Shown here: positions 1,541 through 39,950 of the stretch, piece after piece | Position numbering within the stretch: position 1 is the first letter of the stretch | Layout of the letters: every line of letters begins with the position of its first letter | NCBI GenBank assembly: GCA_018175075.1 | Contig: GCA_018175075.1_4100.1 | Source of the DNA: a phage | Length of the DNA: 64,000 nucleotides | Direction: 5' to 3' (one strand) | Program-made: the position numbers and the translations under genes | The notes under the pieces: generated by a model | Databases searched by the model: none | What the model was told of the DNA's origin: nothing | What the model saw: only the letters and a program-made list of their open reading frames with translations

Positions 1541-1572
1541 CCACATCAAAAAAATTGCATCTGAGGATACTT

Positions 1573-2852: not shown

Positions 2853-2876
2853 CAGTCAAAATACCTCTATAGTATT

Positions 2877-2913
2877 AAATACTTCTGTACATATATATAG
2901 TACAGAAGTATTT
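2877..2913 (+). terminator. long perfect palindrome (14 bp arms around ATATATAT), probable terminator
   Basis: AAATACTTCTGTAC...GTACAGAAGTATTT immediately after gene 2526-2852. Confidence 0.45.
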
Positions 2914-2930
2914 CTCGTTAGAGGTTTGTT

Positions 2931-3290: not shown

Positions 3291-3301
3291 GACTTAAAAA
3301 A

Positions 3302-3679: not shown

Positions 3680-3681
3680 TC

Positions 3682-4032: not shown

Positions 4033-4036
4033 TATT

Positions 4037-4228
4037 ATGTTGATTTATCAAAGTGATAATATTCGTGTTATGCAGCATCCCTACTTACAAATCTTTGATG
4101 TGCAGCAGTATATGGAAGGTGATGACCCAAGAACCTATGGTCGTAAGTATGATTACTTCACTGTAAAGCAGTGTAATAATATTAACGAAGTACGACAATT
4201 AGTTCAAGAACTTCAAAACAAAGGTTGA
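4037..4228 (+). CDS. hypothetical protein, 63 aa
   Basis: ATG with AAGGA RBS; stop lies inside terminator stem. Confidence 0.45.
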   Translation: MLIYQSDNIRVMQHPYLQIFDVQQYMEGDDPRTYGRKYDYFTVKQCNNINEVRQLVQELQNKG

Positions 4229-4246
4229 CTTCGGTCAGCCTTTTTT
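4223..4246 (+). terminator. rho-independent terminator
   Basis: GGTTGAC-TTCG-GTCAGCC hairpin followed by TTTTTT. Confidence 0.7.
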
Positions 4247-4282
4247 GTTATAATTCTCTTAATAAATTAGAGGATTTTAATT

Positions 4283-4723
4283 ATGTATGTATATCGTTTT
4301 GAACTTAAATTTAGTTACATTGAACCTAACTTAGATCCTGCACGAACTGTAGGTCCGTTTGCACGGTATTCAACCAGATACAGTACTAAAAATGGATTTG
4401 ACCGTTTGCTCATGACTACACCTTCTCAATTCCAACCTGAACCAACTGAGGATGGGATCTATTCAATCAAAAGTGGATGGGTATTTGGCTGTCAAAGTTT
4501 GAAAGATTTGTTCAGATTCTTCACTATGGACTTAGGTAAATTGCATCGTGCTGGGTTTGCTATATCTGTATATGAAGTTCCAGACCACCATGTAGACATT
4601 GGTCGTAATCAGGTTCAGTACTATTGCGGTAGTGCTAAATTAGTTCGTATCATGTCAGTTAAGGAAGCAAAGGATGAGTTCCGACAAAGTAAAAGAGAAA
4701 CACATGAGGTAATATATGGATAA
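4283..4723 (+). CDS. hypothetical protein, 146 aa
   Basis: ATG with AGAGGA RBS. Confidence 0.55.
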   Translation: MYVYRFELKFSYIEPNLDPARTVGPFARYSTRYSTKNGFDRLLMTTPSQFQPEPTEDGIYSIKSGWVFGCQSLKDLFRFFTMDLGKLHRAGFAISVYEVPDHHVDIGRNQVQYYCGSAKLVRIMSVKEAKDEFRQSKRETHEVIYG

Positions 4724-5060
4724 AACTCAAATAGAATTAAAGAAATTTGTTTCATTCTATCTTCCTGATGACCCACGTAATTCACAAAAAGATATTGAAT
4801 ATTATAATATCCTATCTAAACAGTTAATGAGAAAGTTTCAACAGTGTTTAACTATATTCAATACAGATGGAAGACGTAGATACCGAATCGTTTCAATGAA
4901 TGATGAAAACGCAAATTTCTTTGATTACGATGTGGTTTTTAGAGCATATAATGATGATCGTATAAAATTAAATTATGATCAAATTATACTTGACCTGAAT
5001 GTTATATGTGTTATAATCACTCACGTAGCCGAACTTAATGGTTTTAAAGAATGGTATTGA
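4716..5060 (+). CDS. hypothetical protein, 114 aa
   Basis: ORF overlapping upstream stop. Confidence 0.5.
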   Translation: MDKTQIELKKFVSFYLPDDPRNSQKDIEYYNILSKQLMRKFQQCLTIFNTDGRRRYRIVSMNDENANFFDYDVVFRAYNDDRIKLNYDQIILDLNVICVIITHVAELNGFKEWY

Positions 5061-5074
5061 ATAGAGGATAACAT

Positions 5075-5341
5075 ATGAAGCTTAAATTACAATATAATGG
5101 ATTTACTTTACGTAATGATACTGAATTTATTAATCGTTCTCCTGGTGCTGAACTGTTTTTACGAGAGATGAACATTCCTTTCATCATTACTACAGTGGGC
5201 GACCGTGAAGTTCTACAATACGCAGAGCATCCGATCATTGATGTTCCTTGGTACTCTGAGCATATGTACATGGATATGGCACGTCGCTACAACTGTAAGT
5301 TCGTAGTTGAAGGTGATAAAATTACAGTCGAATTTAAATAA
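5075..5341 (+). CDS. hypothetical protein, 88 aa
   Basis: ATG with GAGGA RBS. Confidence 0.5.
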   Translation: MKLKLQYNGFTLRNDTEFINRSPGAELFLREMNIPFIITTVGDREVLQYAEHPIIDVPWYSEHMYMDMARRYNCKFVVEGDKITVEFK

Positions 5342-5352
5342 GGTAAATTAAA

Positions 5353-5646
5353 ATGATCAGTACTTCAGTTAATGAAAGCATCGTCGCTGACGTAGAAATG
5401 GTTAAAGAATGTGCAGATGAAACTCTTCGTGATATGTACATTAATGATTTAATTACTGAATACGGTAGTCGTGGTGTACACGAATTTATTCGTTTAAGTG
5501 GAGAGTTGATGAAAAATCGAATTCGTATGAAGCTTAACGTACATCCAAAAGCATGGGCATTTACATTAAAATACGCAGAAGATATTGTTAATTTGCGTCG
5601 AACTGAAGTATATGAACGTTTGCACAATGGTATGTTAGATAAATGA
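5353..5646 (+). CDS. hypothetical protein, 97 aa
   Basis: ATG with AAGG RBS. Confidence 0.5.
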   Translation: MISTSVNESIVADVEMVKECADETLRDMYINDLITEYGSRGVHEFIRLSGELMKNRIRMKLNVHPKAWAFTLKYAEDIVNLRRTEVYERLHNGMLDK

Positions 5647-5655
5647 TTGTAAAAT

Positions 5656-5682
5656 AGGAATTCTTAAATGAATTCCTTTTTG
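5656..5682 (+). terminator. rho-independent terminator
   Basis: AGGAATTC...GAATTCCT hairpin followed by TTTTT. Confidence 0.6.
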
Positions 5683-5698
5683 TTTATAAGGTATAGTA

Positions 5699-5920
5699 AT
5701 GAAATATATAGTACTTGTACTGATATTATTCAGTACTGTTGTAAGTGCTAAACAAAAAGAATATGTTAAATGTATAAATTATGAAGAGAAATATGTTGAA
5801 ACATATAAAAAAAGTATAATTAAAAACGTTTCGATTACTAACAGAGCAACAATCATTGTACTTAAAAATGGGTTAATTATGCTATATAAACCACACGTTA
5901 AATGTGAAATTATTAATTGA
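5699..5920 (+). CDS. secreted small protein (signal peptide), 73 aa
   Basis: AT-rich ORF with N-terminal signal peptide. Confidence 0.45.
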   Translation: MKYIVLVLILFSTVVSAKQKEYVKCINYEEKYVETYKKSIIKNVSITNRATIIVLKNGLIMLYKPHVKCEIIN

Positions 5921-5927
5921 GGAAATT

Positions 5928-6500
5928 ATGAATCGTAAAGGTCGTTTTAAAGTATCAAAAAAGAACAAAAGTTCTAGGTTTAAACCTATTGTTTTAACAG
6001 TTAAATCTAACAAAGATTTAACTGCACTTAGTAAAAAGATAATTTCATCTAAGATTGAAGTATCATACGTAAATTCATTAAAATATATGAATGTCAAACC
6101 ACTGGACCAACTCATTTCACTTATATTTGAACGTAATGATTTTGAGATATCAGTAGATGATTATAGAGCCTATAATGCTGGTTTCATTAATGTTACTTGT
6201 AATAAAAAACTAACTGAGTTGGAAAATTTGTCATGTATAATAAATCTAGATAAAGGTGTTGTGAAGTACCATTTTGTACATTTCACTAATATCAATAATG
6301 GAATGGGTGTACAATCCAGACCTATAGTGCCTACGTGTGATGTTACTAAATTAGCAAAGCTCAATGATGAAGAATATTTTCAAGAAAGCATTGTAACTGA
6401 GCATTTAGATGATATAATAGCTACTTACAAAGAATGCATATGGGTGTTGAATGCTATAAAACCTAAATTGTGTTTAATGAATATTGTTCGTGATTTATGA
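5928..6500 (+). CDS. hypothetical protein, 190 aa
   Basis: ATG with GAGGAA RBS; track ORF at 5904 begins on GTG. Confidence 0.45.
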   Translation: MNRKGRFKVSKKNKSSRFKPIVLTVKSNKDLTALSKKIISSKIEVSYVNSLKYMNVKPLDQLISLIFERNDFEISVDDYRAYNAGFINVTCNKKLTELENLSCIINLDKGVVKYHFVHFTNINNGMGVQSRPIVPTCDVTKLAKLNDEEYFQESIVTEHLDDIIATYKECIWVLNAIKPKLCLMNIVRDL

Positions 6501-6513
6501 ATGGGGAATCGTA

Positions 6514-6957
6514 ATGAGTTGGGTAAATGTTAATAGTATTGAACTTAACGAACAAGATATTTTTGCATTTGTAAATTTAACTAATAACACAGTACTAAAA
6601 GGGCGTTTGTTCAGTGCTAGTGATGGGTACAAATGGATCTCTTTGATGGATGATAGTGGTGTGATTTATAATGTAATGCAATTACCCCAATGGGTATATA
6701 GTAACACTGCTGACGATGTTCTTACCGCAGTTATGCGTGAGTTTGAAAAACTCCCAGGTGGTGATATCAAAAACAAAGTTTTTAATGCAGAACGTAAAAA
6801 TTATACAGCACAGCAATTGGAATCCCTTGCCATTGCTGCTTATCAAGCTGCTATTAAGAAGCCAGAGTGCGTTATTCTTAAGTATGTACCAGACTTAAAA
6901 CTTACGTTGGAAAACATGGATGCATTCATTTTTACATCTGAACTTGATCAGTACTAA
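6514..6957 (+). CDS. hypothetical protein, 147 aa
   Basis: ATG with GGGGA RBS; track ORF at 6484 begins on TTG. Confidence 0.5.
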   Translation: MSWVNVNSIELNEQDIFAFVNLTNNTVLKGRLFSASDGYKWISLMDDSGVIYNVMQLPQWVYSNTADDVLTAVMREFEKLPGGDIKNKVFNAERKNYTAQQLESLAIAAYQAAIKKPECVILKYVPDLKLTLENMDAFIFTSELDQY

Positions 6958-6964
6958 TTTAACT

Positions 6965-6994
6965 TTGGGACAACCATTCTTATTATGATATAAT
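6965..6994 (+). promoter_or_regulatory. sigma70-like promoter
   Basis: TTGGGA, 18 nt, TATAAT followed by GTTTTA. Confidence 0.45.
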
Positions 6995-7072
6995 GTTTTA
7001 TGTCATTCGATATAAATGACAACGGAACTATAAATATTATAGTAAAATTTATCTCTTATAGGAGTTATAAAA

Positions 7073-7456
7073 ATGGTTGATAAATGGAATAAGAAAGATC
7101 CATCACATGATGTTGATATTTCTGGTCTAGACAATGCACATAAGCACAAGTATCTAGATTCACTAGGTCTTCTAAAACCAGACCAAAGTCTTGCACATGA
7201 TCGTCCATCCCGTGAAAAAGCATTTAGCCTAGAATCACTAGGTCATGAGCTTAATCGTGTGTTTGAGGATCACCCAATCTATGTACGTGATATTATCGAG
7301 AAACTTAAAGTAACTCCTAAAGAGCACTTTAAAGCAACTGTACACTCTGCATTCCGTGCATTACATGAATCTCTAAAGAAAACTCACAATCTTCGTAAAA
7401 TTCATGATGAAATCGTGAATGCAATCGAAAGTGAAAAACATAAGTTCAAGAAGTAA
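7073..7456 (+). CDS. hypothetical protein, 127 aa
   Basis: ATG with AGGAG RBS; shares SLGLL motif with 8800-10059 product. Confidence 0.55.
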   Translation: MVDKWNKKDPSHDVDISGLDNAHKHKYLDSLGLLKPDQSLAHDRPSREKAFSLESLGHELNRVFEDHPIYVRDIIEKLKVTPKEHFKATVHSAFRALHESLKKTHNLRKIHDEIVNAIESEKHKFKK

Positions 7457-7460
7457 TAAA

Positions 7461-7487
7461 AGGGTTGACTAAGGTCAGCCCTTTGTT
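7461..7487 (+). terminator. rho-independent terminator
   Basis: AGGGTTGACT-AAG-GTCAGCCCT hairpin then T-rich. Confidence 0.65.
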
Positions 7488-7523
7488 GTATCATAACTTC
7501 TCAATATAACTGAGGTATCATAT

Positions 7524-7637
7524 ATGCAAGGTTTGAAATTTGTAGTTGCTGCACTCATCGCTGCTGTTGTAGTGGGTACAGTATGTTATTCAATTGACAC
7601 CTATATCAATACACCTAGTGTTGAACAAACCAAATAA
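7524..7637 (+). CDS. small membrane peptide, 37 aa
   Basis: short ORF with GAGGT RBS and hydrophobic core; below the track size cutoff. Confidence 0.3.
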   Translation: MQGLKFVVAALIAAVVVGTVCYSIDTYINTPSVEQTK

Positions 7638-7645
7638 GGGATATC

Positions 7646-7909
7646 ATGGCTGAAACATTATCACTATATGCGTTAGTACTGTTATTTGTCGGATTTCTTC
7701 CCGCACTCATTACAGCCATTCGTGTTGTTAAACATGAAGCTGCATTGATTGTATGTAGTATTGGGTCGAACATTCTATTGTATTTCTTTTTGACAAATAC
7801 TATTGTACTGTTTGCTTTCTTTATCATGATTCTGTGGGTACTTGTAATTCTCGGATTCTTCATTTGGTCATTGGTTGATCCTAAGAAAAAATCAGGAGAA
7901 GTGAAATGA
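7646..7909 (+). CDS. membrane protein, 87 aa
   Basis: ATG with AAGGGA RBS; two hydrophobic helices. Confidence 0.5.
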   Translation: MAETLSLYALVLLFVGFLPALITAIRVVKHEAALIVCSIGSNILLYFFLTNTIVLFAFFIMILWVLVILGFFIWSLVDPKKKSGEVK

Positions 7910-8202
7910 AATTAATTATAGCAATGATAATGTGTTTGGCTTTCCCTGTACTGGCTACTCCTAATCTGGACTGCACACTGTTGCGTTCAGATGGTGACAC
8001 ACTTGAAATCAACACATATGAACTCTTTGGTCCAAGTGTAGTGGAGAATGAAACCACCTACAATTTCAAAGCTATTGACTTTGAAGGTAATGTTCCAGTA
8101 CTAACTACAATGACTATTGACAAAACTACTTTACTCGGACGAATCACCACACAACGCGGAGAAAGTAAAACATTCACAGCGAAAGCTGACTGTAACTACT
8201 AA
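7906..8202 (+). CDS. secreted small protein (signal peptide), 98 aa
   Basis: ATGA overlap with upstream gene; signal peptide; two Cys. Confidence 0.5.
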   Translation: MKLIIAMIMCLAFPVLATPNLDCTLLRSDGDTLEINTYELFGPSVVENETTYNFKAIDFEGNVPVLTTMTIDKTTLLGRITTQRGESKTFTAKADCNY

Positions 8203-8223
8203 TGGTATAGTACAGTGAAAATA

Positions 8224-8246
8224 GGGTTGACTTCGGTCAACCTTTA
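8224..8246 (+). terminator. rho-independent terminator
   Basis: GGGTTGAC-TTCG-GTCAACC hairpin then TTTATATA. Confidence 0.6.
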
Positions 8247-8252
8247 TATATA

Positions 8253-8795
8253 ATGGAAGAAATAAACATGGAACGTTGGAAATTAATTCCTGATTATGAC
8301 TATTCAATTTCTGATCATGGAAGAGTAAGAAACGAACAAACTGGATATATAAGTTGTGGATTTAAAAATAAAGATGGGTATGTGAAGGTCGATTTGTATC
8401 GCAATTCTGTGAAAAATAGAAAGGCGATTCATCGACTAGTAGCTGAAGCATTTTTACCACCACCCACACAGAAACAGTTACAGTGGGCGAGTAGAACAAA
8501 GAAAAAAGTTGTTCACATAAACCATAAAGATTGTAATAGAAGTAACAATCACTATTTGAATTTGGAATGGAACACAGCATCTGAAAACGTACTATATTCT
8601 TATTCACATGGTAACGCAACAACTAATCGTGGTGCTGCTGTGTTGACATGGGAAATTGTAAGAGAAATAAGAAAAGATTATAATGATAATTATAATGATG
8701 TGATAGAATATGCACGAGAAAATTGTAATAAATACCGTGTATGTAAAAAAACAATACGTCGTATTTTATACAATCAAACATGGATAGAGGATTAA
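8253..8795 (+). CDS. HNH homing endonuclease (NUMOD4-like N-terminus plus HNH motif)
   Basis: N-terminal WKLIPDYDYSISDHGRVRN and HNH-type INHKDCNRSNNHYLNLEW; free-standing between a terminator and the next gene; start may be the ATG at 8268. Confidence 0.75.
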   Translation: MEEINMERWKLIPDYDYSISDHGRVRNEQTGYISCGFKNKDGYVKVDLYRNSVKNRKAIHRLVAEAFLPPPTQKQLQWASRTKKKVVHINHKDCNRSNNHYLNLEWNTASENVLYSYSHGNATTNRGAAVLTWEIVREIRKDYNDNYNDVIEYARENCNKYRVCKKTIRRILYNQTWIED

Positions 8796-8799
8796 AAAT

Positions 8800-10059
8800 A
8801 TGCCACAAGATAATGGGGATATGAAACATCGTAATGGTGGACTAGTACAACACTCGGATAAATGGGCCGACCGAAATCGTCGCAAAAATAGTTATCAAGC
8901 AGGACAAGGTTCACGTGGTTCCAGAAACCAAGGAACGGGACTTGCTGGTAAGGCAAACGCAGAAGCAGGTGAAGTTAAGAGTACTGAGAACATGACTGAG
9001 CTAGAAAAGCTACGTTATGTTAATTCATTGGGACTTCTTAATGCTACACAAAAACAACGTCTAGCTGATATGGAACGTGAAGAAAAAGAAAAGTCTGCTC
9101 CTGCGAAAGAAGAACCAAAACAAGAAGCACCAAAGGCGGTTAACCCTGTCAAAGAACTGTCTGATAAGTTAGGTAAGATTTTTGCTAATAAACCACAACT
9201 TATCCAAGGTATTGTGAAAGAATTGCAATCTGTACCTAAAGAAGAATTAAAAGTCAAAGCACAAGCTGTACTTGATGCAATGAGTGGAAATACCAGTACT
9301 GAACCAACTGAAGTATTCAGTACTATAATGCGTGCACTTGAAGGTACGCAACAAGGTGATGTGCCTGCACAAGAGGAAGTAAGTCTTGAAAGCGTACTTA
9401 AAACATTTGATAGTATTGGTAAAGAAGACCGTGCTAATGCTCAACAAGTTAAGAATGTACTAGCTAAGTTAGAAAACCGTCTGGAAGGTAAAGACGATAA
9501 GATTAAATTAGTATCTGATGCAGTTAACGATGCACTTAAATCTTATGTACAAGGTGAAAAGAGTCGTTTTGTAACTGCAATGGATGCTGCATTCAATACT
9601 ATGAAAAAGTATGAAGCTGATCATGGTGAGAAGGTTACACGAGATGGTTATCTGATGCGTGATGATGAAGAAGGTGCAGTAGAACAGAATGATGTTCATT
9701 CAGACGAAGAAATTGATGACATGGAAGCTGAACTGTCACAAGACCGCCAAATGACTGAAAAATCCCATAACGAACTACAGAAATTAATGCAATGGGTTGC
9801 AGATGTTGGTGAAAAAGCTGGTGCTGATAAGAAGAGTATAAACCGAAATCTTAGTTGGATTAAAGATAAAGTTGGTAACAACGCTCGTAAACTACAAAAA
9901 GCGTGGACTGATGTAGTGAATGGTGCTGTTGACATTGATGTTGAATCCGGTGAGGCATATGATTATGCATTGACTACACTTGATGACTCTTTCCGTGATT
10001 ACGAAAATGGAAATGTAACTCCTTGGGAAAAGGATATCATGAGCAAATACGGTAAATGA
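8800..10059 (+). CDS. hypothetical acidic protein, 419 aa
   Basis: long ORF with AGAGGA RBS; Glu/Lys-rich. Confidence 0.55.
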   Translation: MPQDNGDMKHRNGGLVQHSDKWADRNRRKNSYQAGQGSRGSRNQGTGLAGKANAEAGEVKSTENMTELEKLRYVNSLGLLNATQKQRLADMEREEKEKSAPAKEEPKQEAPKAVNPVKELSDKLGKIFANKPQLIQGIVKELQSVPKEELKVKAQAVLDAMSGNTSTEPTEVFSTIMRALEGTQQGDVPAQEEVSLESVLKTFDSIGKEDRANAQQVKNVLAKLENRLEGKDDKIKLVSDAVNDALKSYVQGEKSRFVTAMDAAFNTMKKYEADHGEKVTRDGYLMRDDEEGAVEQNDVHSDEEIDDMEAELSQDRQMTEKSHNELQKLMQWVADVGEKAGADKKSINRNLSWIKDKVGNNARKLQKAWTDVVNGAVDIDVESGEAYDYALTTLDDSFRDYENGNVTPWEKDIMSKYGK

Positions 10060-10069
10060 TAAAACAAAA

Positions 10070-10096
10070 GGTTGACTTCGGTCAGCCTTTTTTTTG
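10070..10096 (+). terminator. rho-independent terminator
   Basis: GGTTGAC-TTCG-GTCAGCC hairpin then T9. Confidence 0.7.
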
Positions 10097-10131
10097 TAAA
10101 TACAAAAGAGGAATTAAGAAGAGGGATTACA

Positions 10132-10383
10132 ATGAAAAAATATATTATATTTGGAATTGTATTATTTTCCAGTACTGCTTATGGTGCAGATTATCATTGC
10201 TCCGTAGCAAGGCAGGATTTCAGAAATGGGGAGTTCTATACTACCTCATACACAAAAGGAATAATACACGACACCGACAGAACTATTGGATTTAATGTGT
10301 TTGACAACAAAGATTCATATACTTCAGGTATACTATCTGAGCATAAGACTGATGTAATGGGAATAGAAAAAGAGTTCCGGTGA
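10132..10383 (+). CDS. secreted small protein (signal peptide), 83 aa
   Basis: ATG with AGAGGGA RBS; signal peptide. Confidence 0.5.
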   Translation: MKKYIIFGIVLFSSTAYGADYHCSVARQDFRNGEFYTTSYTKGIIHDTDRTIGFNVFDNKDSYTSGILSEHKTDVMGIEKEFR

Positions 10384-10393
10384 TTCAGTAGTA

Positions 10394-10717
10394 ATGTGCA
10401 ATGACATTGAAAGTACTAAAACAATTTATTATAATAATGAACGTAACTATCGTTTTCATAATTTAACCACAAATAAAAGTTTACTATTTTACAATTGTAA
10501 AGAAGTAATACTCCCATCAGACAATAGCTGTACTCCAACTAATCAACCCCCAGCACAATGTAATACTCCCTCTGAACCTGATAAAAATAAAAAAGACAAA
10601 GATAAAGATAAAAAAGAAGACAAAAAACCTTTAAAAGATAAAAAGAAAGATAAAAAACCTAATCCGTTTAAAAATAATAAACCAGCACAACCCGATATGA
10701 CATGTAAAATAAAATAA
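10394..10717 (+). CDS. hypothetical protein with KDK-repeat low-complexity tail, 107 aa
   Basis: ORF with weak RBS; Lys/Asp repeats. Confidence 0.35.
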   Translation: MCNDIESTKTIYYNNERNYRFHNLTTNKSLLFYNCKEVILPSDNSCTPTNQPPAQCNTPSEPDKNKKDKDKDKKEDKKPLKDKKKDKKPNPFKNNKPAQPDMTCKIK

Positions 10718-10726
10718 GGATATATA

Positions 10727-11146
10727 ATGAAAAAGATTTTTTTAAGTATTATTTTAGTACTTTTTAGTTTTAATGTATATGCAGCAGATGCTAAACAGGT
10801 TGCAAATACAGTAAAAGATGTTATAGTAGATAATGCTCCTACATTAGAGGAAATTGGGGTAAAAACTTGTGATATAGTAATATATAATTTAGTTAATGAT
10901 GAACGAGTTATGTTGAATACGTATGAACAAGTAGTCCCATTGGTTGAATCTGGTGATGCTTTTAGCTTTACATATAAAGTTAAATTAACAGGAGGGGTTG
11001 AAGTTAATCTTGACATTGATACCGCTTCAGTACTAAAAGATAAACTAGGATATGTGTTCAATCGTATTCGTGAAGAAGGTCATCTTAAGTATGTTTATGA
11101 AAGTAAAATACTAAAACGTGCAATAGTTATAGAAAACTGTAAATGA
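10727..11146 (+). CDS. secreted protein (signal peptide), 139 aa
   Basis: ATG with AAGGA RBS; signal peptide ending VYA/AD. Confidence 0.55.
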   Translation: MKKIFLSIILVLFSFNVYAADAKQVANTVKDVIVDNAPTLEEIGVKTCDIVIYNLVNDERVMLNTYEQVVPLVESGDAFSFTYKVKLTGGVEVNLDIDTASVLKDKLGYVFNRIREEGHLKYVYESKILKRAIVIENCK

Positions 11147-11154
11147 TAATAAAA

Positions 11155-11179
11155 GGGTTGACTTCGGTCAGCCTTTTTT
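11155..11179 (+). terminator. rho-independent terminator
   Basis: GGGTTGAC-TTCG-GTCAGCC hairpin then TTTTTT. Confidence 0.7.
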
Positions 11180-11215
11180 GTTATGATGTTGGTATTAACT
11201 ACAGAGGATAAAGTA

Positions 11216-11857
11216 ATGACTAAGCAAGACATATTCAAAACTTTAATTGACATTTTGCGTCCATCAAAAACTCGTTGTGCGATGGAGTTTGATATTCCTT
11301 ATGCTGAACGCGTAATCTTTCCACAAGTTAAAGCTGCTGGACTTACTTTGCTTGGAATGGGGATGTACTCTGTAGTAGTTGAACATAAAAACTATCATGG
11401 ACGTGCATTTAAAGTAACCACTTCACGCTGGGATGGTTTTCGTGCTTATGCAAAGTACTGCATTGAAAACGCAGGAACCAAGTTTCTTCCAGTGATCTAC
11501 AGTGCCAACGAACAAGGAAACTTTGGATGGTATGAGATGGACAAGTACTATCCTATAATTAAACAAAAAAATAATTATGATGACTTTGTTAGTACTAAAA
11601 TTGGAGATTTATATTCTTATGCACATGCTGGTCAGTACGCTACTTCAGTGAATGATATGCGTGGAAATTCTGAAGAGATTGCTATTGCAACGGTCGCTGC
11701 TAACATCATGAAAGAGTTTCACGGGCGTTTTGTACCAGACATTCATTCAAGTAATGTGATGATGGATAAAGATGGCAATGTATTCATTACTGATCCTCTT
11801 TCGTGTGATGTACGTAGAGAAATACCAGTTACTGAAGAAGATCCAGTTTTTTATTGA
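11216..11857 (+). CDS. putative atypical protein-kinase-like protein, 213 aa
   Basis: GAGGA RBS; catalytic-loop-like DIHSSNVMMDKDGNVFITD shared in pattern with products of 14993 and 56147. Confidence 0.4.
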   Translation: MTKQDIFKTLIDILRPSKTRCAMEFDIPYAERVIFPQVKAAGLTLLGMGMYSVVVEHKNYHGRAFKVTTSRWDGFRAYAKYCIENAGTKFLPVIYSANEQGNFGWYEMDKYYPIIKQKNNYDDFVSTKIGDLYSYAHAGQYATSVNDMRGNSEEIAIATVAANIMKEFHGRFVPDIHSSNVMMDKDGNVFITDPLSCDVRREIPVTEEDPVFY

Positions 11858-11918
11858 CAGAACTGATGTTCTGGTGTATTCTTAATAAACCATAAAAATT
11901 GCGGTAAAGGATAAAATC

Positions 11919-12200
11919 ATGCGTTCATTTGAAAACTTAATAGGTAAGCATCTTTTATCTGAAATTGATGCAGACGTTAAAGAATTATCCAAATCAAAAA
12001 GTTACATTCATTTGGATGAACTGTTTATTAAGTACGGTGAGATTGGTTTTAAGTCATTATTTGTTTTTACTATGAAAGTACATAGTTTAAAGTACTTCGA
12101 TTTGAGTTCTAAAGATGGTGAACCGAATCTATATTACATGTATTACCTTAAGAACAAAGATGAAGCTAATACATTACTCTCTGAATATATATTGGGGTAA
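11919..12200 (+). CDS. hypothetical protein, 93 aa
   Basis: ATG with AAAGGA RBS. Confidence 0.5.
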   Translation: MRSFENLIGKHLLSEIDADVKELSKSKSYIHLDELFIKYGEIGFKSLFVFTMKVHSLKYFDLSSKDGEPNLYYMYYLKNKDEANTLLSEYILG

Positions 12201-12202
12201 AA

Positions 12203-12541
12203 ATGGAACAATATTTTGAATTAATAAACAAAGTATCATTTTATGTAGTATCTTTGGTTTGGGTGTATTATATGTTTTGCTATATTATTGCATTCTTCCG
12301 ATATACTACTTTATATGAACGTATCTACTATGATGCCCCAATTTCATTCTTGATGTTTTGTGCATGTACGTGGGGAATATTAGAAGTACTGATATGTGGG
12401 TATAGTACTGATGAATTAAATCTGGTATCGGTGTTGACTGGGTTTTCATTTGTTGTTATGATAGCTGCCGTTCCAGTATGGTTGTTCTTTGGACTAGTTC
12501 ATCGCATTGATATATGGCGTTCTAATATCCCTGAAAAGTAA
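12203..12541 (+). CDS. small membrane protein, family A paralog
   Basis: hydrophobic; C-terminal R.N.PE(K/R) tail shared with next two genes. Confidence 0.55.
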   Translation: MEQYFELINKVSFYVVSLVWVYYMFCYIIAFFRYTTLYERIYYDAPISFLMFCACTWGILEVLICGYSTDELNLVSVLTGFSFVVMIAAVPVWLFFGLVHRIDIWRSNIPEK

Positions 12542-12544
12542 GGA

Positions 12545-12892
12545 TTGGAAATGATTTATTACACTAACATGTTTGCCTATGCTGTTGCTTGCATTTACAT
12601 TGTTTACTTCTTATTCGGTGGAGTACTGTGCTTCTTTAAGTACAAAACGTTGTTCAACCGAATGTACCCAAATCATCCAATTGTAGTTGTACTTTTGATT
12701 CTTTCAGTTTCTCAAATAATCGTTGAAACTACAATGGGTATCAGTAGTGTACATTATAGTTTTGGCACTATAGTAATTATTACTATGCTTATTGCATACA
12801 TTTTAGTACTTGGATATGGTATCTTTGGTAATATTGGTATGAAAATGTATCATCGAATTAAAACATTACGTGATAATCTACCGGAGCGTTGA
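12545..12892 (+). CDS. small membrane protein, family A paralog
   Basis: paralog of 12203 gene. Confidence 0.55.
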   Translation: MEMIYYTNMFAYAVACIYIVYFLFGGVLCFFKYKTLFNRMYPNHPIVVVLLILSVSQIIVETTMGISSVHYSFGTIVIITMLIAYILVLGYGIFGNIGMKMYHRIKTLRDNLPER

Positions 12893-12893
12893 T

Positions 12894-13238
12894 ATGTATA
12901 ATTTGAACCTAATCTCATATATTATAACAACACTGTTTACATTCTATGCCTTTGTTGGTATAATCCTACTGTACTTTAAATTTTATAAAGTGTTTAACCG
13001 TTTCTATCCTTCAATGGAGAATGAGTTTTTCTTTGTGTTGTACGTAGGTTACACATTAATGGCTACATGTTTCACTGTAGCCGATGGTGTCATCGGCATT
13101 AAAACTGATTCCCCAAATGGTAGTACGCTGGTTGCATTTATTCTTACTGGATTCCTTGCAACTTATATTGCCTTCATTACAACATGGTCAGTGGTTGAAT
13201 TTCTCTTGCGACTACGAAAGAATATGCCGAATCGATAG
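12894..13238 (+). CDS. small membrane protein, family A paralog
   Basis: paralog; ATG 1 nt after upstream stop. Confidence 0.5.
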   Translation: MYNLNLISYIITTLFTFYAFVGIILLYFKFYKVFNRFYPSMENEFFFVLYVGYTLMATCFTVADGVIGIKTDSPNGSTLVAFILTGFLATYIAFITTWSVVEFLLRLRKNMPNR

Positions 13239-13247
13239 GAGACATAT

Positions 13248-13502
13248 ATGTTTGCGTTGCGTAATAAAAACACTAAAGAATTATTATGTATTGATACCGT
13301 ATGGGATTGTGCGGGATCAACTACAGTTCTTGAAGAAGGAACTGGATATTGCGTGTTTGTTGTTCATGATAGGAATGAACTCGAATTATTACTTGCTGAG
13401 TTCAATGCTGGTGGTAATCCTAACAGTACTGAATACCCTGAGATTATCAATCCAGCACCACCAGGCTCTTATGAAATTCTACAACTGTGGGAGTTGAAGT
13501 AA
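13248..13502 (+). CDS. hypothetical protein, 84 aa
   Basis: ATG with AGGAGA RBS. Confidence 0.5.
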   Translation: MFALRNKNTKELLCIDTVWDCAGSTTVLEEGTGYCVFVVHDRNELELLLAEFNAGGNPNSTEYPEIINPAPPGSYEILQLWELK

Positions 13503-13882
13503 TGCGTCAAATGCACAAAGTAACCGAGCTAAACAAGCGTCTGGTTAAACAATCAATGTTCGAGGATAAAGAGTCTTATTATAACTTTAAACGTGCTGTA
13601 GAGGCTGCTATCCACATTCAGAAGCTTAAAGAACGTGGTTGTATTATTCTGGAAAATGGGTCGGAAGTTGTAACGGATGACTTTAGTGTAGCGTTTGATG
13701 TTTCACCTGACGGGACGCTATCAATGCCCCGCTTAGGAACTGGAAACATGACTGTTTGGGTTGGCTTCACTATGGGGAATGTACCTGGTACTGTGTACGT
13801 AGATGATGCGGAATTGAAAGACAGTTTCAAAAACTTATCTTATCTTGAACCACAATACGCACATGAAATGAATTTATTTTGA
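13502..13882 (+). CDS. hypothetical protein, 126 aa
   Basis: ATG overlapping upstream stop (TAATG). Confidence 0.5.
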   Translation: MRQMHKVTELNKRLVKQSMFEDKESYYNFKRAVEAAIHIQKLKERGCIILENGSEVVTDDFSVAFDVSPDGTLSMPRLGTGNMTVWVGFTMGNVPGTVYVDDAELKDSFKNLSYLEPQYAHEMNLF

Positions 13883-13883
13883 G

Positions 13884-13940
13884 TTGACAAACACATTCAG
13901 TACTGTATAATGCTTATCAAGGGGATGAACTTCTCATCCC
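13884..13940 (+). promoter_or_regulatory. sigma70-like promoter plus leader hairpin
   Basis: TTGACA, 16 nt, TATAAT, then GGGGATGA...TCATCCC hairpin. Confidence 0.55.
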
Positions 13941-13958
13941 TACAATCGAGGAACTACC

Positions 13959-14513
13959 ATGATTACTTTTAAGAAAACTGCTAACCACATCCATGAAATC
14001 TACATTAACGGTCACAAAGCTGGCCTTCTTCGTTTACTCGCCCATCATCCTGATGTTACCGTATCTGATAATGAACCTAAAGATTGGCGTGTATTTTTCT
14101 TTGGAAAGTACAGTGATTTTCAAGTATCAAACCTGAAGAACATTCGTTCAGTATGCACGTTAACTGAAATTAAAGAAAAGTTAGAAAAAGCATTGAAAAC
14201 TAATCCAGATGGTGTTCTTCCACCTGATAACTTTGTAGAGAAAGGTTATGCATTAGCTCATTTCAAAGATGGTACTATTCAATCTATCAGTACTGAATAT
14301 GAATATCAATGGACTGAGTACTTCACTTATGGATCGCGTAATACATTGATGGCTTCACGTAGTAAATTGGAAGAAGTACTGACTCGTATGAATGAACGCG
14401 AACGTCAATTTTATGACAAACCAGAAATGTGGAGTTCAACTTACATTGACCGTATTGACTATGTTATTATGACTCCAATCTTTGACACTGCTTACTATGA
14501 TTCTTTGAAATAA
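13959..14513 (+). CDS. hypothetical protein, 184 aa
   Basis: ATG with GAGGAA RBS. Confidence 0.55.
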   Translation: MITFKKTANHIHEIYINGHKAGLLRLLAHHPDVTVSDNEPKDWRVFFFGKYSDFQVSNLKNIRSVCTLTEIKEKLEKALKTNPDGVLPPDNFVEKGYALAHFKDGTIQSISTEYEYQWTEYFTYGSRNTLMASRSKLEEVLTRMNERERQFYDKPEMWSSTYIDRIDYVIMTPIFDTAYYDSLK

Positions 14514-14524
14514 GGATAACTTAT

Positions 14525-14701
14525 ATGAAACTACGTACTCGTAATCGACTGATGGATGCACTGTACCATGAACAGCTTTCACTGAATGAAGTGAAGCGAC
14601 AGTTAATGTACACATATCTGTTACCCGCTCGCATTGCAAAACAACGTGCTAAAGAATTGCTGAAAGAAGCAATCGAGTACTGGGAATCTGATTCGTACTA
14701 A
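14525..14701 (+). CDS. hypothetical small protein, 58 aa
   Basis: ATG with AAGGA RBS; below track size cutoff. Confidence 0.4.
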   Translation: MKLRTRNRLMDALYHEQLSLNEVKRQLMYTYLLPARIAKQRAKELLKEAIEYWESDSY

Positions 14702-14729
14702 TTGTCACGTTAATTAAGTGAGGCGATAA

Positions 14730-14981
14730 ATGAAAATTTTATTAGTTCTAATACTACTAATTGTTTTACCATTTACGTTAGTATCCCCTGAACTTGCATG
14801 GAATGTGTTTGTGTACTTACTATGTACTATTGTAGTAAATGGTATCTTGTTCTTAGTTCTATTCATAAATGGAATAGGACACGGTGGAGGATGGACCAGT
14901 ACTGCTGATATTGTACATAAAACCACTATGTCTTTATTTGTAGTGTGGAATTTATTCTGGACTTGGTTTGTGTTCTTCTAA
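14730..14981 (+). CDS. membrane protein, 83 aa
   Basis: GAGG RBS; hydrophobic. Confidence 0.5.
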   Translation: MKILLVLILLIVLPFTLVSPELAWNVFVYLLCTIVVNGILFLVLFINGIGHGGGWTSTADIVHKTTMSLFVVWNLFWTWFVFF

Positions 14982-14992
14982 TTAAAAAAAAT

Positions 14993-15364
14993 ATGAATAT
15001 AGATTTGAAAGGTGCAACACGAACTGTCATACTCATTGGGGAATATGCTATCAAGATTCCAACCTTTAAAAGTTGGAAGCTATTCTTAACAGGGATGATA
15101 GCTAACCTCAATGAATGTTCGTGGATGCAGTACTCCAAGCGTAGTAATAGTGGTATCTGCCCTACGTTGTGGTCATCATGTACTGGACTAGTAACTGTAC
15201 AGAAACGTTGTAAGCCAGTACAACATAGGGGTTTATTTTGGGTGGAGTTGTGTGCTTTAGCATTGGATTCAGAGTTAAGTACTGACTTCTTCTATTCAGA
15301 TGCGAAGCCAGAAAACTTTGGGTATCTGTGTGGTAAGTTGGTTAAACTTGATTATGGAGATTAA
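14993..15364 (+). CDS. putative small protein-kinase-like protein, 123 aa
   Basis: AIKIP (VAIK-like) and DAKPENFG...KLDYG (catalytic loop plus DFG-like); weak RBS. Confidence 0.4.
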   Translation: MNIDLKGATRTVILIGEYAIKIPTFKSWKLFLTGMIANLNECSWMQYSKRSNSGICPTLWSSCTGLVTVQKRCKPVQHRGLFWVELCALALDSELSTDFFYSDAKPENFGYLCGKLVKLDYGD

Positions 15365-15365
15365 T

Positions 15366-15635
15366 ATGTACGCACTGTATAATAAAGAAAAGAAACGATT
15401 TGCTAAGGTTGAAATTTCGATTGATACATTTGACATGTTGGAGTACTGTATTGTAACGGACTTATATGCTAACTTGTATTACGTTCTTGATGACGTATCA
15501 GTACTGCAACGATTGCTTGAGAATTCCAAAAGTCAATGCCAGGACATCCATGATGGTTCATCTTATGAAACACCTGAGTGTCCCCACGGGCAACTCGATG
15601 GGTATGAGATTGTTAAGTTGGGAATTGTTGAGTAA
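15366..15635 (+). CDS. hypothetical protein, 89 aa
   Basis: ATG with GGAGA RBS right after upstream stop. Confidence 0.45.
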   Translation: MYALYNKEKKRFAKVEISIDTFDMLEYCIVTDLYANLYYVLDDVSVLQRLLENSKSQCQDIHDGSSYETPECPHGQLDGYEIVKLGIVE

Positions 15636-15641
15636 AAGGTA

Positions 15642-15670
15642 TTGACACCGTACTCATTTAACTGTATTAT
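15642..15670 (+). promoter_or_regulatory. sigma70-like promoter
   Basis: TTGACA, 17 nt, TATTAT. Confidence 0.5.
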
Positions 15671-15700
15671 GTATGTACACCAACTAATGAGGAATCGGAA

Positions 15701-16060
15701 ATGGCATCTTTATCTGAAATCACTGAACTGAATCCACTGGTAATTAGTACTGTTCAACGCACCAAGACGTTTTACTTCCGTCCTGCTGATGGATGGAAAC
15801 GTGGAATGAATGGTGACTATCGAGTACTGGAAGATTCGCTCATCGAGCGTATCAACTCTGAACTACAGAAGTATGAAGGTGTTAAAGTTGTCCGTTCAAC
15901 TTCTCGTTATTTTGAGTACTACATTGAGTCTTCAACTGTAAATGAAAACTCATCATTCTCGGTGGATAACACTGATATTCTTCGCAATGCAGTTGGTTTG
16001 CTATGCAACATTGCAGAAGAAATGGGATTAACTATCACCACAATGAGTGAGTTAGAATAG
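15701..16060 (+). CDS. hypothetical protein, 119 aa
   Basis: ATG with GAGGAA RBS. Confidence 0.55.
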   Translation: MASLSEITELNPLVISTVQRTKTFYFRPADGWKRGMNGDYRVLEDSLIERINSELQKYEGVKVVRSTSRYFEYYIESSTVNENSSFSVDNTDILRNAVGLLCNIAEEMGLTITTMSELE

Positions 16061-16070
16061 AATAAAAAAA

Positions 16071-16095
16071 GGGTTGACTTAGGTCGGCCCTTTTG
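16071..16095 (+). terminator. rho-independent terminator
   Basis: GGGTTGAC...GTCGGCCC hairpin then TTTT. Confidence 0.65.
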
Positions 16096-16130
16096 CTATT
16101 ATATCTATATCGAAACGAAGGAGACAAACC

Positions 16131-16904
16131 ATGACCCGTCAAGAGAAAGCAATCCAAATCGAAAAAAACTTCAATAGCATGATGGCTGCACTGGAATGCC
16201 TTCTTGATACACAAGCTAACTCTATCAACTCTCTGATCGTATCAGGTAAAGGTGGTGTTGGTAAAACTTATAACGTTGACCAACGGTTGCAGAAAGCTGA
16301 TGATAACTTTGAAATCGACTACAAGAAAATCAGTGGTAAAGTAACTACTTTGGGTCTGTACGAAGCACTGTATCGTTCACGTCATGCCGCATCAGTACTG
16401 TTACTTGATGACGTTGATATCTTCTCTGACGAGACTAACATTGATTTGCTTAAAGCTGTGTTGGATACGTCAGAGAAGCGTGTAGTTTCTTACGCGACTT
16501 CTGCTAAGTACCTGGAACAGCAGGGTATCCCTAAGCAGTTTGAATTCCGTGGTAAAGTAATCTTTCTGACTAACAAAAACCTGTCACAGATTGCTAAAGG
16601 TAAAAGCAGCTTAGCACCACACATCGATGCACTGATCACTCGTAGTATCTTTGTTGACCTGCAACTGTTCACCAACGAAGAAGTGATGATTCACATTGAG
16701 AACATCATGAACAAAACTAACATCCTTGAAAACAATGGTGTTAACAAAAATGGTTGTAAAGCAATCCTGAATTGGATGCTGAACAACGAAGAACGTTTGC
16801 GTAGTCCATCACTGCGTATGCCAGTACTGATCGCTGGTTTGTATAATAAATTCCCATACGATTGGGAATCAATGGCAGAGAATATGTTCCTTGAGAAAAT
16901 TTAA
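16131..16904 (+). CDS. P-loop NTPase (Walker A/B ATPase), 257 aa
   Basis: Walker A SGKGGVGKT, Walker B VLLLDDVD; AAGGAG RBS; codon usage unlike neighbours. Confidence 0.65.
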   Translation: MTRQEKAIQIEKNFNSMMAALECLLDTQANSINSLIVSGKGGVGKTYNVDQRLQKADDNFEIDYKKISGKVTTLGLYEALYRSRHAASVLLLDDVDIFSDETNIDLLKAVLDTSEKRVVSYATSAKYLEQQGIPKQFEFRGKVIFLTNKNLSQIAKGKSSLAPHIDALITRSIFVDLQLFTNEEVMIHIENIMNKTNILENNGVNKNGCKAILNWMLNNEERLRSPSLRMPVLIAGLYNKFPYDWESMAENMFLEKI

Positions 16905-16913
16905 TTACATGTA

Positions 16914-16942
16914 TTGACAGTACTACACTATGGTAGTACTAT
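16914..16942 (+). promoter_or_regulatory. sigma70-like promoter
   Basis: TTGACA, 17 nt, TACTAT. Confidence 0.5.
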
Positions 16943-16971
16943 AACTTAATATTCACCACCGGAGATACGAT

Positions 16972-17310
16972 ATGCTTGAGTTTTTTAATTCAGATACAAT
17001 GATTAGTATTACTTTGATTTATCTGTTTGGTTTTTTCTTTTATCATGCACTGGTTGTAGTACTGTGGTATTTTAAAAAGAAAATTGTTTTTAAACTGTAT
17101 CCAGTAAGGAATTCATCACTAGTTCTTTACACACTAGTTCAAGGTTTGTTTGCAATTGTTGGTCTTATGGCACACTTAATTTATTGTGCCAATCCTCACT
17201 TGAACTCAATCTCACAATATATTGTATTCTTTGGGTTGTTCATTTGGTTAGTTGTATACTTAATCCATCTCATTATTCATGGTAGAGATAAAATTCGCGG
17301 AGACTTCTAA
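16972..17310 (+). CDS. small membrane protein, family B paralog
   Basis: first of seven coupled hydrophobic ORFs with basic C-termini. Confidence 0.5.
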   Translation: MLEFFNSDTMISITLIYLFGFFFYHALVVVLWYFKKKIVFKLYPVRNSSLVLYTLVQGLFAIVGLMAHLIYCANPHLNSISQYIVFFGLFIWLVVYLIHLIIHGRDKIRGDF

Positions 17311-17657
17311 TGTTTGAAGCTTATCTTGAGTTTTTAAGGAGTAGTTCAGTTGCACATTCACTTGCAGGGATTATTCTAACAACTTATGTATCATTTTGGG
17401 TAGTTATGTTTCTAGGATGGTATTTTAAACGACAATTCTATAAACGTAATGGTGAAGATTTTATGAATTCTGCCATTAATCAATCGTTGTTTGCATCAAC
17501 ATTGATTGCATGTATTGTAGCAACACTCACAGGAAAGGTACTACCAGCTTTTTCCGCAGTTTACGGCACACTTGGGATGATATGTTTAACTTTTATATTG
17601 ACCATTAAAATTTGTTGTGTTATGATTGAACTTCGAAATAAGATACCGGAGGAATGA
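17310..17657 (+). CDS. small membrane protein, family B paralog
   Basis: start overlaps upstream stop. Confidence 0.5.
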   Translation: MFEAYLEFLRSSSVAHSLAGIILTTYVSFWVVMFLGWYFKRQFYKRNGEDFMNSAINQSLFASTLIACIVATLTGKVLPAFSAVYGTLGMICLTFILTIKICCVMIELRNKIPEE

Positions 17658-17992
17658 TGGAGTACTTTATTGATTTACTGCCGTGGTATATGAAAGTTAG
17701 TACCATGTACTATATTATTAGTGCTGGATTCTACTTTCTGATGTGGTTCTTTAAACGACCAATTTCAGTATTCATCGCTGATAACATGCTGCAATTAAAA
17801 TTACACGCATGGTTTGGTATGGCGATGATTATGCCTATTATTCACTACTCAATGATTAGTAGAGGTTTCCGTTCTAATGGTGAACCAATTGTATTAGTAT
17901 TCTATTGGGGTTCAACTATTGCATATGTAAGTTTGTTGTTGTTCCCAGTCGTTCATAAGTTACGTGCTAAAGTTCCTGATGCGAGGTACTAA
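17654..17992 (+). CDS. small membrane protein, family B paralog
   Basis: ATGA overlap. Confidence 0.5.
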   Translation: MMEYFIDLLPWYMKVSTMYYIISAGFYFLMWFFKRPISVFIADNMLQLKLHAWFGMAMIMPIIHYSMISRGFRSNGEPIVLVFYWGSTIAYVSLLLFPVVHKLRAKVPDARY

Positions 17993-18306
17993 TGGATATA
18001 GTAACATTGATTTACACGTTGTATTCATTCTATTTCATTATGTGTTGGGTTGGATTTTTATTTGTACTCAAGATGTTTGATTATGTTGAAAAACAGATAA
18101 AAGAATTTTGTATTCCTTTTATCGGTTCAACCATTATTAGTGTTTCTTGTGTGTATTTTTTGGTTTTTGATCCACCAGATAACACTGCAATGATTGACTT
18201 GATGTTACTACCAACAACTGTTACTTTTTTATGTAGTCTGATGCCGCCGATTAGCCGTGGACTAACAGAATTTAGACGCAATCAAAAGCGTAAACGAGGG
18301 ATGTAA
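17992..18306 (+). CDS. small membrane protein, family B paralog
   Basis: start overlaps upstream stop. Confidence 0.5.
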   Translation: MDIVTLIYTLYSFYFIMCWVGFLFVLKMFDYVEKQIKEFCIPFIGSTIISVSCVYFLVFDPPDNTAMIDLMLLPTTVTFLCSLMPPISRGLTEFRRNQKRKRGM

Positions 18307-39756: not shown

Positions 39757-39950
39757 ACGGATTTTGGGCGTAGTTACCCTGGATGGATTTTGGGCGTAGA
39801 TATGTCTAGCCCTCCAGAAGTCTGGAAGTAAAGATGGCTATCCATCTAGACGGCTAAACGGCTAGATTTCTGGATGGCTGGATGGCTAGACGTTTGGACG
39901 GCTAAACGGCTAGATGGTTACACGTCTGGAAGTATAGACGGCTAAATCAA
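39757..39950. repeat. iteron-like short repeat cluster
   Basis: GGATTTTGGGCGTAG twice; at least 7 copies of (A/G)ACGGCTA/GATGGCTA within about 110 bp; TCTGGAAG three times. Confidence 0.55.

Follow-up and report, generated by a model that had tools for sequence, protein, structure and literature searches.

The phage DNA analysed here, a stretch of 64,000 nucleotides referred to as the window, belongs to a jumbo coliphage of the genus Asteriusvirus, the closest relatives of which are E. coli and Salmonella phages. At 39800-39943 on the plus strand it contains one contiguous head-to-tail lattice of 18 in-phase 8-bp units. On sequence comparison, the units, their register and the quality of the individual boxes are those of operators for MetJ, the SAM-sensing repressor of the host. 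In the genome records compared, the position of such arrays is conserved near the terminal-repeat boundary in three unrelated phage families with MetJ-bearing hosts. The array is probably a super-operator for host MetJ·SAM, which would act as a nucleoprotein block, as a repressor sink, or as both, and the sequences suggest that these phages recruit or soak up the host regulator.

Met boxes are a textbook operator, and their occurrence in phage genomes appears to be new. A full-text literature search gave no earlier report of phage genomes with met boxes or MetJ sites, and the array is not mentioned in the available portions of the T5 injection-stop analysis (10.1101/866236) or of the CBB genome paper.

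Sequence and register of the array

The array and the motif pair directly upstream of it are listed below. The 16 units in upper case pass the published met-box threshold, and the two in lower case (agccctcc and ggaagtaa) fall below it.

39759-39773 and 39785-39799, plus strand: exact copies of GGATTTTGGGCGTAG, directly upstream of the array
From 39800, plus strand: array units 1-6, ATATGTCT agccctcc AGAAGTCT ggaagtaa AGATGGCT ATCCATCT
Continuing, plus strand: array units 7-12, AGACGGCT AAACGGCT AGATTTCT GGATGGCT GGATGGCT AGACGTTT
To 39943, plus strand: array units 13-18, GGACGGCT AAACGGCT AGATGGTT ACACGTCT GGAAGTAT AGACGGCT

Together the good boxes sum to 120 bits. The core of the array (39832-39943, plus strand) consists of 14 contiguous met-box-like units that score 102.8 bits, or 7.35 bits per box, and two more in-phase boxes lie outside this core at 39800 and 39816. 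After a 2-nt shift the unit reads AGAYGKCT, which matches the met box consensus of E. coli MetJ (AGACGTCT). Nested periods of 8, 16, 24, 32, and 48 were reported for the array by Tandem Repeats Finder.

A preliminary description of this DNA had noted seven or more direct copies of a RAYGGCTA-type motif at irregular spacing, interleaved with TCTGGAWG and preceded by two copies of another motif. The seven copies are present on the plus strand (39833, 39849, 39857, 39881, 39897, 39905, and 39937), as are the two upstream copies, which are the GGATTTTGGGCGTAG pair listed above. The spacing was misjudged: the successive intervals are 16, 8, 24, 16, 8, and 32, all multiples of 8, so that every copy falls into one strict 8-bp register. 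TCTGGAWG does occur, at 39821, 39869, and 39925, but these sites are junctions of weaker lattice units in the same register as RAYGGCTA rather than a separate interleaved motif. Elsewhere on the plus strand of the window RAYGGCTA has 15 further matches, nearly all of them GATGGCTA or AATGGCTA, which resemble ATG-GCT start contexts.

The excess of repeats over shuffled sequence that the same description called for was also confirmed. Against the 102.8 bits of the core, the best run was 15.3 bits in 2000 local dinucleotide shuffles and 18.1 bits in 20 whole-window shuffles, and the array is the only place in the 64-kb window with a run of at least three boxes. A coding repeat was ruled out, since six of six reading frames are closed across the array. 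No tRNA or known RNA family was found at the array; the sole Rfam match, to a eukaryotic scaRNA, was far below threshold and spurious. The region is blank in the careful annotations of phAPEC6, G17, 121Q, and CBB, whereas several auto-annotated relatives list hypothetical proteins over it. Annotators should therefore be warned that automated gene callers place spurious 'hypothetical proteins' here.

MetJ is a ribbon-helix-helix protein that binds adjacent boxes cooperatively, with SAM as corepressor. One dimer binds each 8-bp met box with SAM as cofactor, and functional sites contain at least two adjacent boxes; the E. coli K-12 regulon table comprises nine operators of 2-4 boxes each, 29 boxes in total (PMC3228920). 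Scoring was based on the symmetrised MetJ half-site matrix and the thresholds of the same study (Augustus & Spicer 2011). A box must reach at least one quarter of the consensus score (12.58 bits), and a site must contain at least two boxes directly adjacent in the 8-bp register with a total no lower than the consensus score. By both published measures the array scores as an operator, with 16 of 18 units accepted as boxes and 14 of them adjacent. As a check of the script, the published scores of E. coli operators were reproduced (metB, 31.2 bits over 4 boxes; metF, 24.95 bits over 4 boxes), and the per-box score of the array lies inside the natural operator range of 5-11 bits. Moreover, the phage box GGACGGCT is found exactly in the E. 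coli metE operator. When a reciprocal matrix was built from 139 phage boxes alone and run over 50 kb of E. coli chromosome, the top tandem runs were the metJ/metB and metF operators.

The pooled composition of 127 phage boxes (A 76, G 81, A 91, C 45/T 39, G 89, G 50/T 50, C 72, T 93%) is close to the MetJ matrix except at position 6 and in its strand asymmetry. G occupies position 6 in 50% of phage boxes vs 10% of natural boxes. Between strands, C at position 3 (9%) is set against G at position 6 (50%), and T at position 4 (39%) against A at position 5 (3%). A symmetric MetJ dimer alone is thus insufficient as an explanation of these deviations.

The surroundings of the array are not those of a methionine gene. 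It does not lie at the promoter of a gene for methionine or SAM metabolism or transport; it is set in a ~2-kb untranslated stretch, and the neighbouring ORFs are small hypothetical early genes. No recognisable promoter overlaps it, the nearest promoter-like sites being roughly 100-370 bp away. In a bacterial genome scan, 8-bp microsatellites satisfying AGANGNCT x3 were found, among the matches listed, in many bacteria without MetJ, and therefore the pattern by itself is not unique to MetJ biology. These bacterial microsatellites are homogeneous and contain 1-3 unit types, in contrast to the heterogeneous arrays of the phages.

Conservation at phage genome ends

The 2.1-kb array region is 88-98% identical to PBECO4, 121Q, phAPEC6, G17, and about 40 more records. 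It falls in 38766-40711, a stretch of ~2 kb without credible ORFs between small plus-strand genes. Further features of this stretch are given below.

39039: inferred left physical genome end and start of a ~20-21.5 kb direct terminal repeat (DTR), by homology
39944-39964, plus strand: 21-bp A+T-rich tract AAATCAAAATTTTATTTTGTT, directly after the last box
39965-39993, plus strand: conserved box TTTTCCAATAGTTCCCCTACCGCGTGGGG
40108-40180, plus strand: ~70-nt element, copy 1, AATTTTGGGCGTAA..GCACCC..TGGG..TTTCTCG..TATTATAC
40323-40395, plus strand: ~70-nt element, copy 2, same layout as copy 1

The records of vB_Ec-M-J, CRJP21, and fEgEco12 all start exactly at the base matching 39039, with AGTAGGCAGAGG, and vB_Ec-M-J carries an annotated DTR (1..21525) with the array at 773-916. 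From these three record starts and the annotated DTR we infer a DTR of ~20 kb whose left end lies 761 bp before the first unit of the array. Asteriusvirus records that include both ends carry the array region twice. Related jumbo phages show a similar layout, with arrays at 672-775 in XbC2, for which PhageTerm called a DTR ('long ends type T5'), at 697-808 in pEa_SNUABM_12, and at 709-804 in CBB. For CBB, read depth and PFGE place a DTR at 1-22456.

The number of in-phase units differs among Asteriusvirus records: 12 in SHEFM2K, 16 in G17, 18 in the window, CRJP21, phAPEC6, and vB_Ec-M-J, 19 in fEgEco12, 121Q, and A4, and about 24 in EJP2. Copy number shifts by whole units, and a phase break occurs in one record, which is flagged UNVERIFIED. 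EJP2 is only 73.5% identical in the array region and still has 6.0 bits per box over its 24 units. Neutral drift at this divergence gave a mean of -0.3 and a maximum of 3.7 bits per box in 3000 simulations with substitutions made in the window array. In XbC2, pEa_SNUABM_12, and CBB the boxes score 6.8-7.2 bits each, although the flanks are largely unalignable. The units are heterogeneous, and box positions 1-3, 5, 7, and 8 are conserved. On this sequence comparison it is the pattern, rather than a particular sequence, that is maintained under selection across three jumbo-phage genera. Repeated unit duplication could contribute to its upkeep; the units are, however, heterogeneous.

Several flanking motifs accompany the array. 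The GGATTTTGGGCGTAG pair is separate from the lattice, and its TTTTGGGCGTA portion recurs at 40112 and 40327, where it is shared with the ~70-nt elements. A related motif, ATTTTGGRYGTA, flanks the arrays of other genera; motifs of this type precede the array in most Rak2-like genera, and the sequence at this place in XbC2 is divergent. ATTTTGGGTGTA, which is related to GGATTTTGGGCGTAG, lies upstream of the arrays in CBB and pEa_SNUABM_12. Downstream, TTTTCCAATAGTTCCCCTACCGCGTGGGG stands at a fixed 21-24 bp past the last unit in the Asteriusvirus records where it was found; it was not found in EJP2. Its counterparts are TTTTCCATTAGCTCCCCTTCCGCG in Mimasvirus and ...TTAGTTCCCC... in Eneladusvirus, and a conserved box TTTTCCAWTAGYTCCCCTWCCGCG follows the array in CBB, XbC2, and pEa_SNUABM_12. 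The ~70-nt element has homologues at ~1008-1075 in XbC2 and ~1043-1110 in CBB, with the nucleotide sequence itself conserved. None of the records compared annotates it; it is possibly a small RNA or a composite promoter.

A sensitive BLAST search with an array as query returned 96 phage records that carry arrays. Beyond the Rak2-like phages, the carriers are Demerecviridae of Vibrio (Thalassavirus and others), Aeromonas, and Providencia (PR1 and PSTCR5), together with Vibrio phage PVo5 and the T7-like coliphages PGT2 and phiKT. The Aeromonas phage AhSzq-1 has 28 contiguous boxes (221 bits), Pontus has 15, and PR1 has 9. The PR1 array stops 770 bp short of the inner boundary annotated for the left terminal repeat, which places the other copy 770 bp from the right physical end. 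PGT2 has a 9-box array at 38-109 inside its 260-bp DTR, duplicated at 42464-42535. T5-like carriers show the order terminator, DnaA boxes, array, CCCTGCGC (the T5 nick motif), and GTGCAAATCCGAC repeats, and their array occupies the region equivalent to the annotated T5 injection-stop signal. In phage T5 itself no met-box array was found, and other repeats lie at the equivalent spot. Since T5 and many other coliphages do without it, the array is not essential for a terminal-repeat lifestyle. The longest array seen is that of an uncultivated viral contig (IMGVR_UViG_3300031658_004036, 7257-7544), where 36 near-identical AGATGTCY units (356 bits) directly follow a terminator-like hairpin.

Other features of the window and its relatives were recorded. 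The palindrome AGTACT occurs 283 times in the window vs 21.5 expected from shuffles, and CAGTACTG 64 times vs 0.7 (for example at 39019-39028, 39377-39386, 39417-39426, 40101-40110, and 40262-40271). The surrounding consensus is AAT.TTTCAGTACTGAAAA, and the motif often lies inside or directly behind a -10-like TATAAT. It is densest at 36-60 kb and falls to 2 per 4 kb beyond 60 kb. The terminal regions of XbC2, CBB, and pEa_SNUABM_12 (there in the form AGTACTTGAC beside -35-like sites) are likewise rich in AGTACT, and the T5-like AhSzq-1 has it in its terminal repeats. The motif may serve the early region as an operator or promoter element. A promoter (TTGACT-16-TATAAT, 39404-39431) is followed about 190 nt on by the hairpin CCACCAGC-ACAA-GCTGGTGG (39617-39636), at about which position the G17 record has an annotated terminator, as mapped by offset rather than by alignment. 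The interval 39404-39636 could be a short non-coding early transcript, without an Rfam match.

Tandem repeats of 10 bp (ATCAAAAGTA and GTAATCATAA types) lie at 39100-39126, 60-90 bp inside the inferred left terminus, and at 38880-38922, about 120-160 bp outside it; vB_Ec-M-J has one additional unit. They are candidates for terminase recognition or cut-site context. Positions 1-10 of three Mimasvirus and Eneladusvirus records from three laboratories (L005, which is XbC2; L006; and L014, which is CBB) read TATC(T/C)(G/T)T(T/C)CCTGAAGTC. The XbC2 start contains ATCTGTT, the class II pause signal of T7 RNA polymerase at the T7 concatemer junction, which may be coincidence. Length differences of ~1.1 kb in some relatives appear to lie outside the array. 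The small ORFs at 40712-61400, mostly within the inferred terminal repeat, encode a ParE-like toxin domain, a GNAT acetyltransferase, and a DksA/TraR zinc finger, among others, a content consistent with a host-takeover module. On the minus strand at 20097-34289, just before the right end of the genome, about ten consecutive ORFs of roughly 370-410 aa have similar sizes, which suggests that they are paralogues.

Binding partner and alternative readings

The host range of the carriers agrees with a host partner. MetJ is found solely in Enterobacterales, Pasteurellales, Vibrionales, Aeromonadales, and Alteromonadales, and the hosts of 95 of the 96 carrier records are Enterobacterales, Vibrio, or Aeromonas. 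For the window, metJ is present in E. coli K-12. The one exception is the Mimasvirus XbC2; its similarity to phages of Erwinia and Cronobacter exceeds 50%, but it was reported on Xanthomonas vesicatoria, whose genus is outside the five MetJ-bearing orders.

In tblastn with E. coli MetJ as query, no homologue was found in the 64-kb window or in PGT2. Likewise, Pfam revealed no ribbon-helix-helix family in 66 ORFs from the inferred terminal repeat and its surroundings, within the 64 kb analysed of a ~350 kb genome. The P-loop ATPase that had been put forward as a binding partner gained no support. The sole protein common to the window and the early region of PGT2 is DUF7249 (phrog_871), which was rejected as array binder: it is present in 288 phage records, most from groups absent among the array carriers. 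The window encodes two paralogous small early proteins of this family (41162-41464 and 43235-43504), one of which is 75% identical to gp03 of PGT2. DUF7249 is also present in rV5-like phages, cyanophages, and Ralstonia phages, and appears to be a widely exchanged early gene. The terminases of T7-like, T5-like, and Rak2-like phages are unrelated, and the presence of one box in phages with different terminases speaks for a host partner. With no MetJ or ribbon-helix-helix gene found in the phage sequence searched and DUF7249 too widespread, a host partner is the economical reading.

The main rival is that a phage-encoded factor (a small ribbon-helix-helix protein, a small terminase subunit, or a DNA-entry protein) binds the array, which would then work in packaging, in terminus recognition, or as an injection stop and would resemble met boxes incidentally or by convergence. 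Four observations speak for it: the position 0.04-0.8 kb from the terminal-repeat boundary is kept in three families, even in a 260-bp DTR; the T5-like arrays sit within the injection-stop layout of DnaA boxes, array, CCCTGCGC, and GTGCAAATCCGAC; the systematic G at position 6 and the strand asymmetry depart from natural met boxes; and XbC2 was reported on a host outside the MetJ-bearing orders. However, one 8-mer is common to the unrelated T7-like, T5-like, and Rak2-like families, the searches above gave no ribbon-helix-helix or MetJ-like protein among the 66 ORFs and no MetJ homologue in the 64-kb window or PGT2, the only shared early protein occurs mostly in non-carrier groups, and the carrier hosts follow the taxonomic range of MetJ. 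A phage-encoded binder is therefore rather unlikely, if still a serious competitor.

The array had been likened to iterons bound by replication initiators or regulatory proteins. The second half of this comparison holds, in that the sequence evidence points to a regulatory-protein array, while origin iterons bound by a phage initiator are highly improbable. The same-orientation repeats do adjoin the 21-bp A+T-rich tract, the cumulative GC skew is lowest at 38-40 kb, and DnaA boxes stand beside the array in T5-like relatives. Nevertheless, the units are contiguous 8-mers and not repeats of ~17-22 bp spaced on the helical repeat, 38766-40711 contains no DnaA box (TTWTNCACA), and neither an initiator nor a helicase-loader gene is among the neighbouring ORFs. 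The skew minimum falls where minus-strand genes give way to plus-strand genes and where the genome physically ends, so that as origin evidence it is confounded by both. The iteron analogy itself had rested on the irregular spacing, which was wrong. Moreover, the available part of the T5 analysis reports the T5 origins near the genome centre and not in the terminal repeat (10.1101/866236).

An equally poor prospect is a functionless 8-bp minisatellite arising by replication slippage. Copy number does vary by whole units among close relatives, and homogeneous 8-bp microsatellites of similar sequence are present in many genomes. Against this, the units are heterogeneous with positions 1-3, 5, 7, and 8 conserved, the pattern and its position are kept across genera and families despite diverged flanks, and the drift simulations predict that the pattern would be lost.

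Least credible of all is a role in the early leader region as a piece of non-coding RNA or as a transcription-attenuation element: the near-consensus promoter at 39404-39431 and promoter-like sites on the minus strand (40070-40042) are directed toward the array, and its single strand folds better than shuffles (z = -4.4), but extra folding energy is expected because the units are quasi-palindromic, an Rfam match is absent, and what is conserved is an 8-bp DNA lattice with whole-unit indels, not a fixed structure.

Possible roles and known systems

If the array is a MetJ super-operator, SAM-loaded MetJ would coat about 112-144 bp of each terminal-repeat copy in the infected cell. Two roles can be envisaged. 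In the first, a large nucleoprotein block or landmark would form 0.04-0.8 kb from the terminase cut site. At the concatemer junction it may make transcription or translocation pause, or it may show where first-step DNA transfer ends; its orientation would be that of incoming transcription, and its place in T5-like phages would be the end of the first-step-transfer DNA. In the second, the array would be a repressor sink, with replicating phage DNA titrating MetJ. One genome with two copies offers 28-32 boxes, vs 29 per E. coli chromosome, and therefore replication should titrate MetJ, which would derepress the synthesis and uptake of methionine and SAM. The block or landmark is weighted slightly above the sink because even a terminal repeat of 260 bp has retained the array. 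For T5-like phages the sink is less convincing, since these degrade host DNA early.

A bolder and doubtful proposal is that three unrelated terminal-repeat families use the SAM-sensing repressor of the host as a working part of their genome ends, in the form of a metabolically gated roadblock. A filament of 14-28 MetJ·SAM dimers near the repeat boundary would be released on a fall in SAM. It would set the stop of first-step transfer, or the concatemer-junction pause needed for end formation, and would simultaneously strip MetJ from the host regulon. If this were true, the 50-year-old question of the T5-type injection-stop signal would become directly testable.

SAM is the cofactor of restriction-modification and other SAM-dependent defence systems, and also that of the phages' own methyltransferases, which makes a link to MetJ biologically loaded. 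If MetJ binds, the arrays would be a class of cis-element by which lytic phages hijack a metabolite-sensing repressor of the host, either by building a structural block at their genome ends or by offering a decoy through which the methionine/SAM pathway opens. The array also offers concrete and inexpensive access to the untranslated parts of jumbo-phage terminal repeats and to the injection-stop region of T5 type.

Four known systems can be compared with the array. The first is 'Repeat Region 3' of T5, the injection-stop stretch within the left terminal repeat, which is likewise untranslated, repeat-rich, and just inside the boundary of a long DTR. It differs in its paired DnaA boxes, inverted repeats IRD'/IRC', and GTGCAAATCCGAC-type repeats, which are present in T5, Pontus, AhSzq-1, and PR1 and absent from the region in the window. 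Relative to record orientation, the jumbo-phage array lies at the opposite (left) boundary. In T5 (AY543070), repeats with GAGAATCATTATC lie at 9540-9720, beside the DnaA boxes, where T5-like relatives have the array. These repeats are 4-5 mismatches from the 19-bp Fur-box consensus; no Fur box was found in the region of the window around the array. The sequences hint that the T5 injection-stop region may be a collection of binding sites for host transcription factors.

In T7, arrays of short repeats reportedly flank the terminal repeat, and the concatemer junction is said to contain a pause site. The analogy would lie in short same-orientation repeats at or in the DTR, in the concatemer junction, and in pausing coupled to DNA processing. 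The T7 repeats are CCTAAAG-type heptamers at a spacing of ~12-13 bp, unrelated to met boxes, and pausing in T7 depends on a signal to RNA polymerase instead of a protein roadblock.

The tetramer boxes of TP228 ParG, at an 8-bp period, and the omega heptads of pSM19035 are centromere-like arrays bound by ribbon-helix-helix proteins. By analogy, the array may share with them contiguous units of 7-8 bp, one ribbon-helix-helix dimer for each, and ~100 bp of coated DNA. Their box sequence is different, they reside on plasmids whereas the array is in a lytic phage, and no partition ATPase or ribbon-helix-helix gene was found near the array.

The closest comparison is with the MetJ operators of E. 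coli and other gammaproteobacteria. Those of E. coli have 2-4 boxes each, whereas the phage arrays have 12-28 and are 3-7 times longer; the phage arrays lie in a terminal repeat, without a methionine gene downstream or a clear promoter overlap, and at position 6 their boxes have G as frequently as T, in a strand-asymmetric manner. Common to both are the AGACGTCT unit, the adjacency of the boxes, the strict register, and an information content per box in the natural range.
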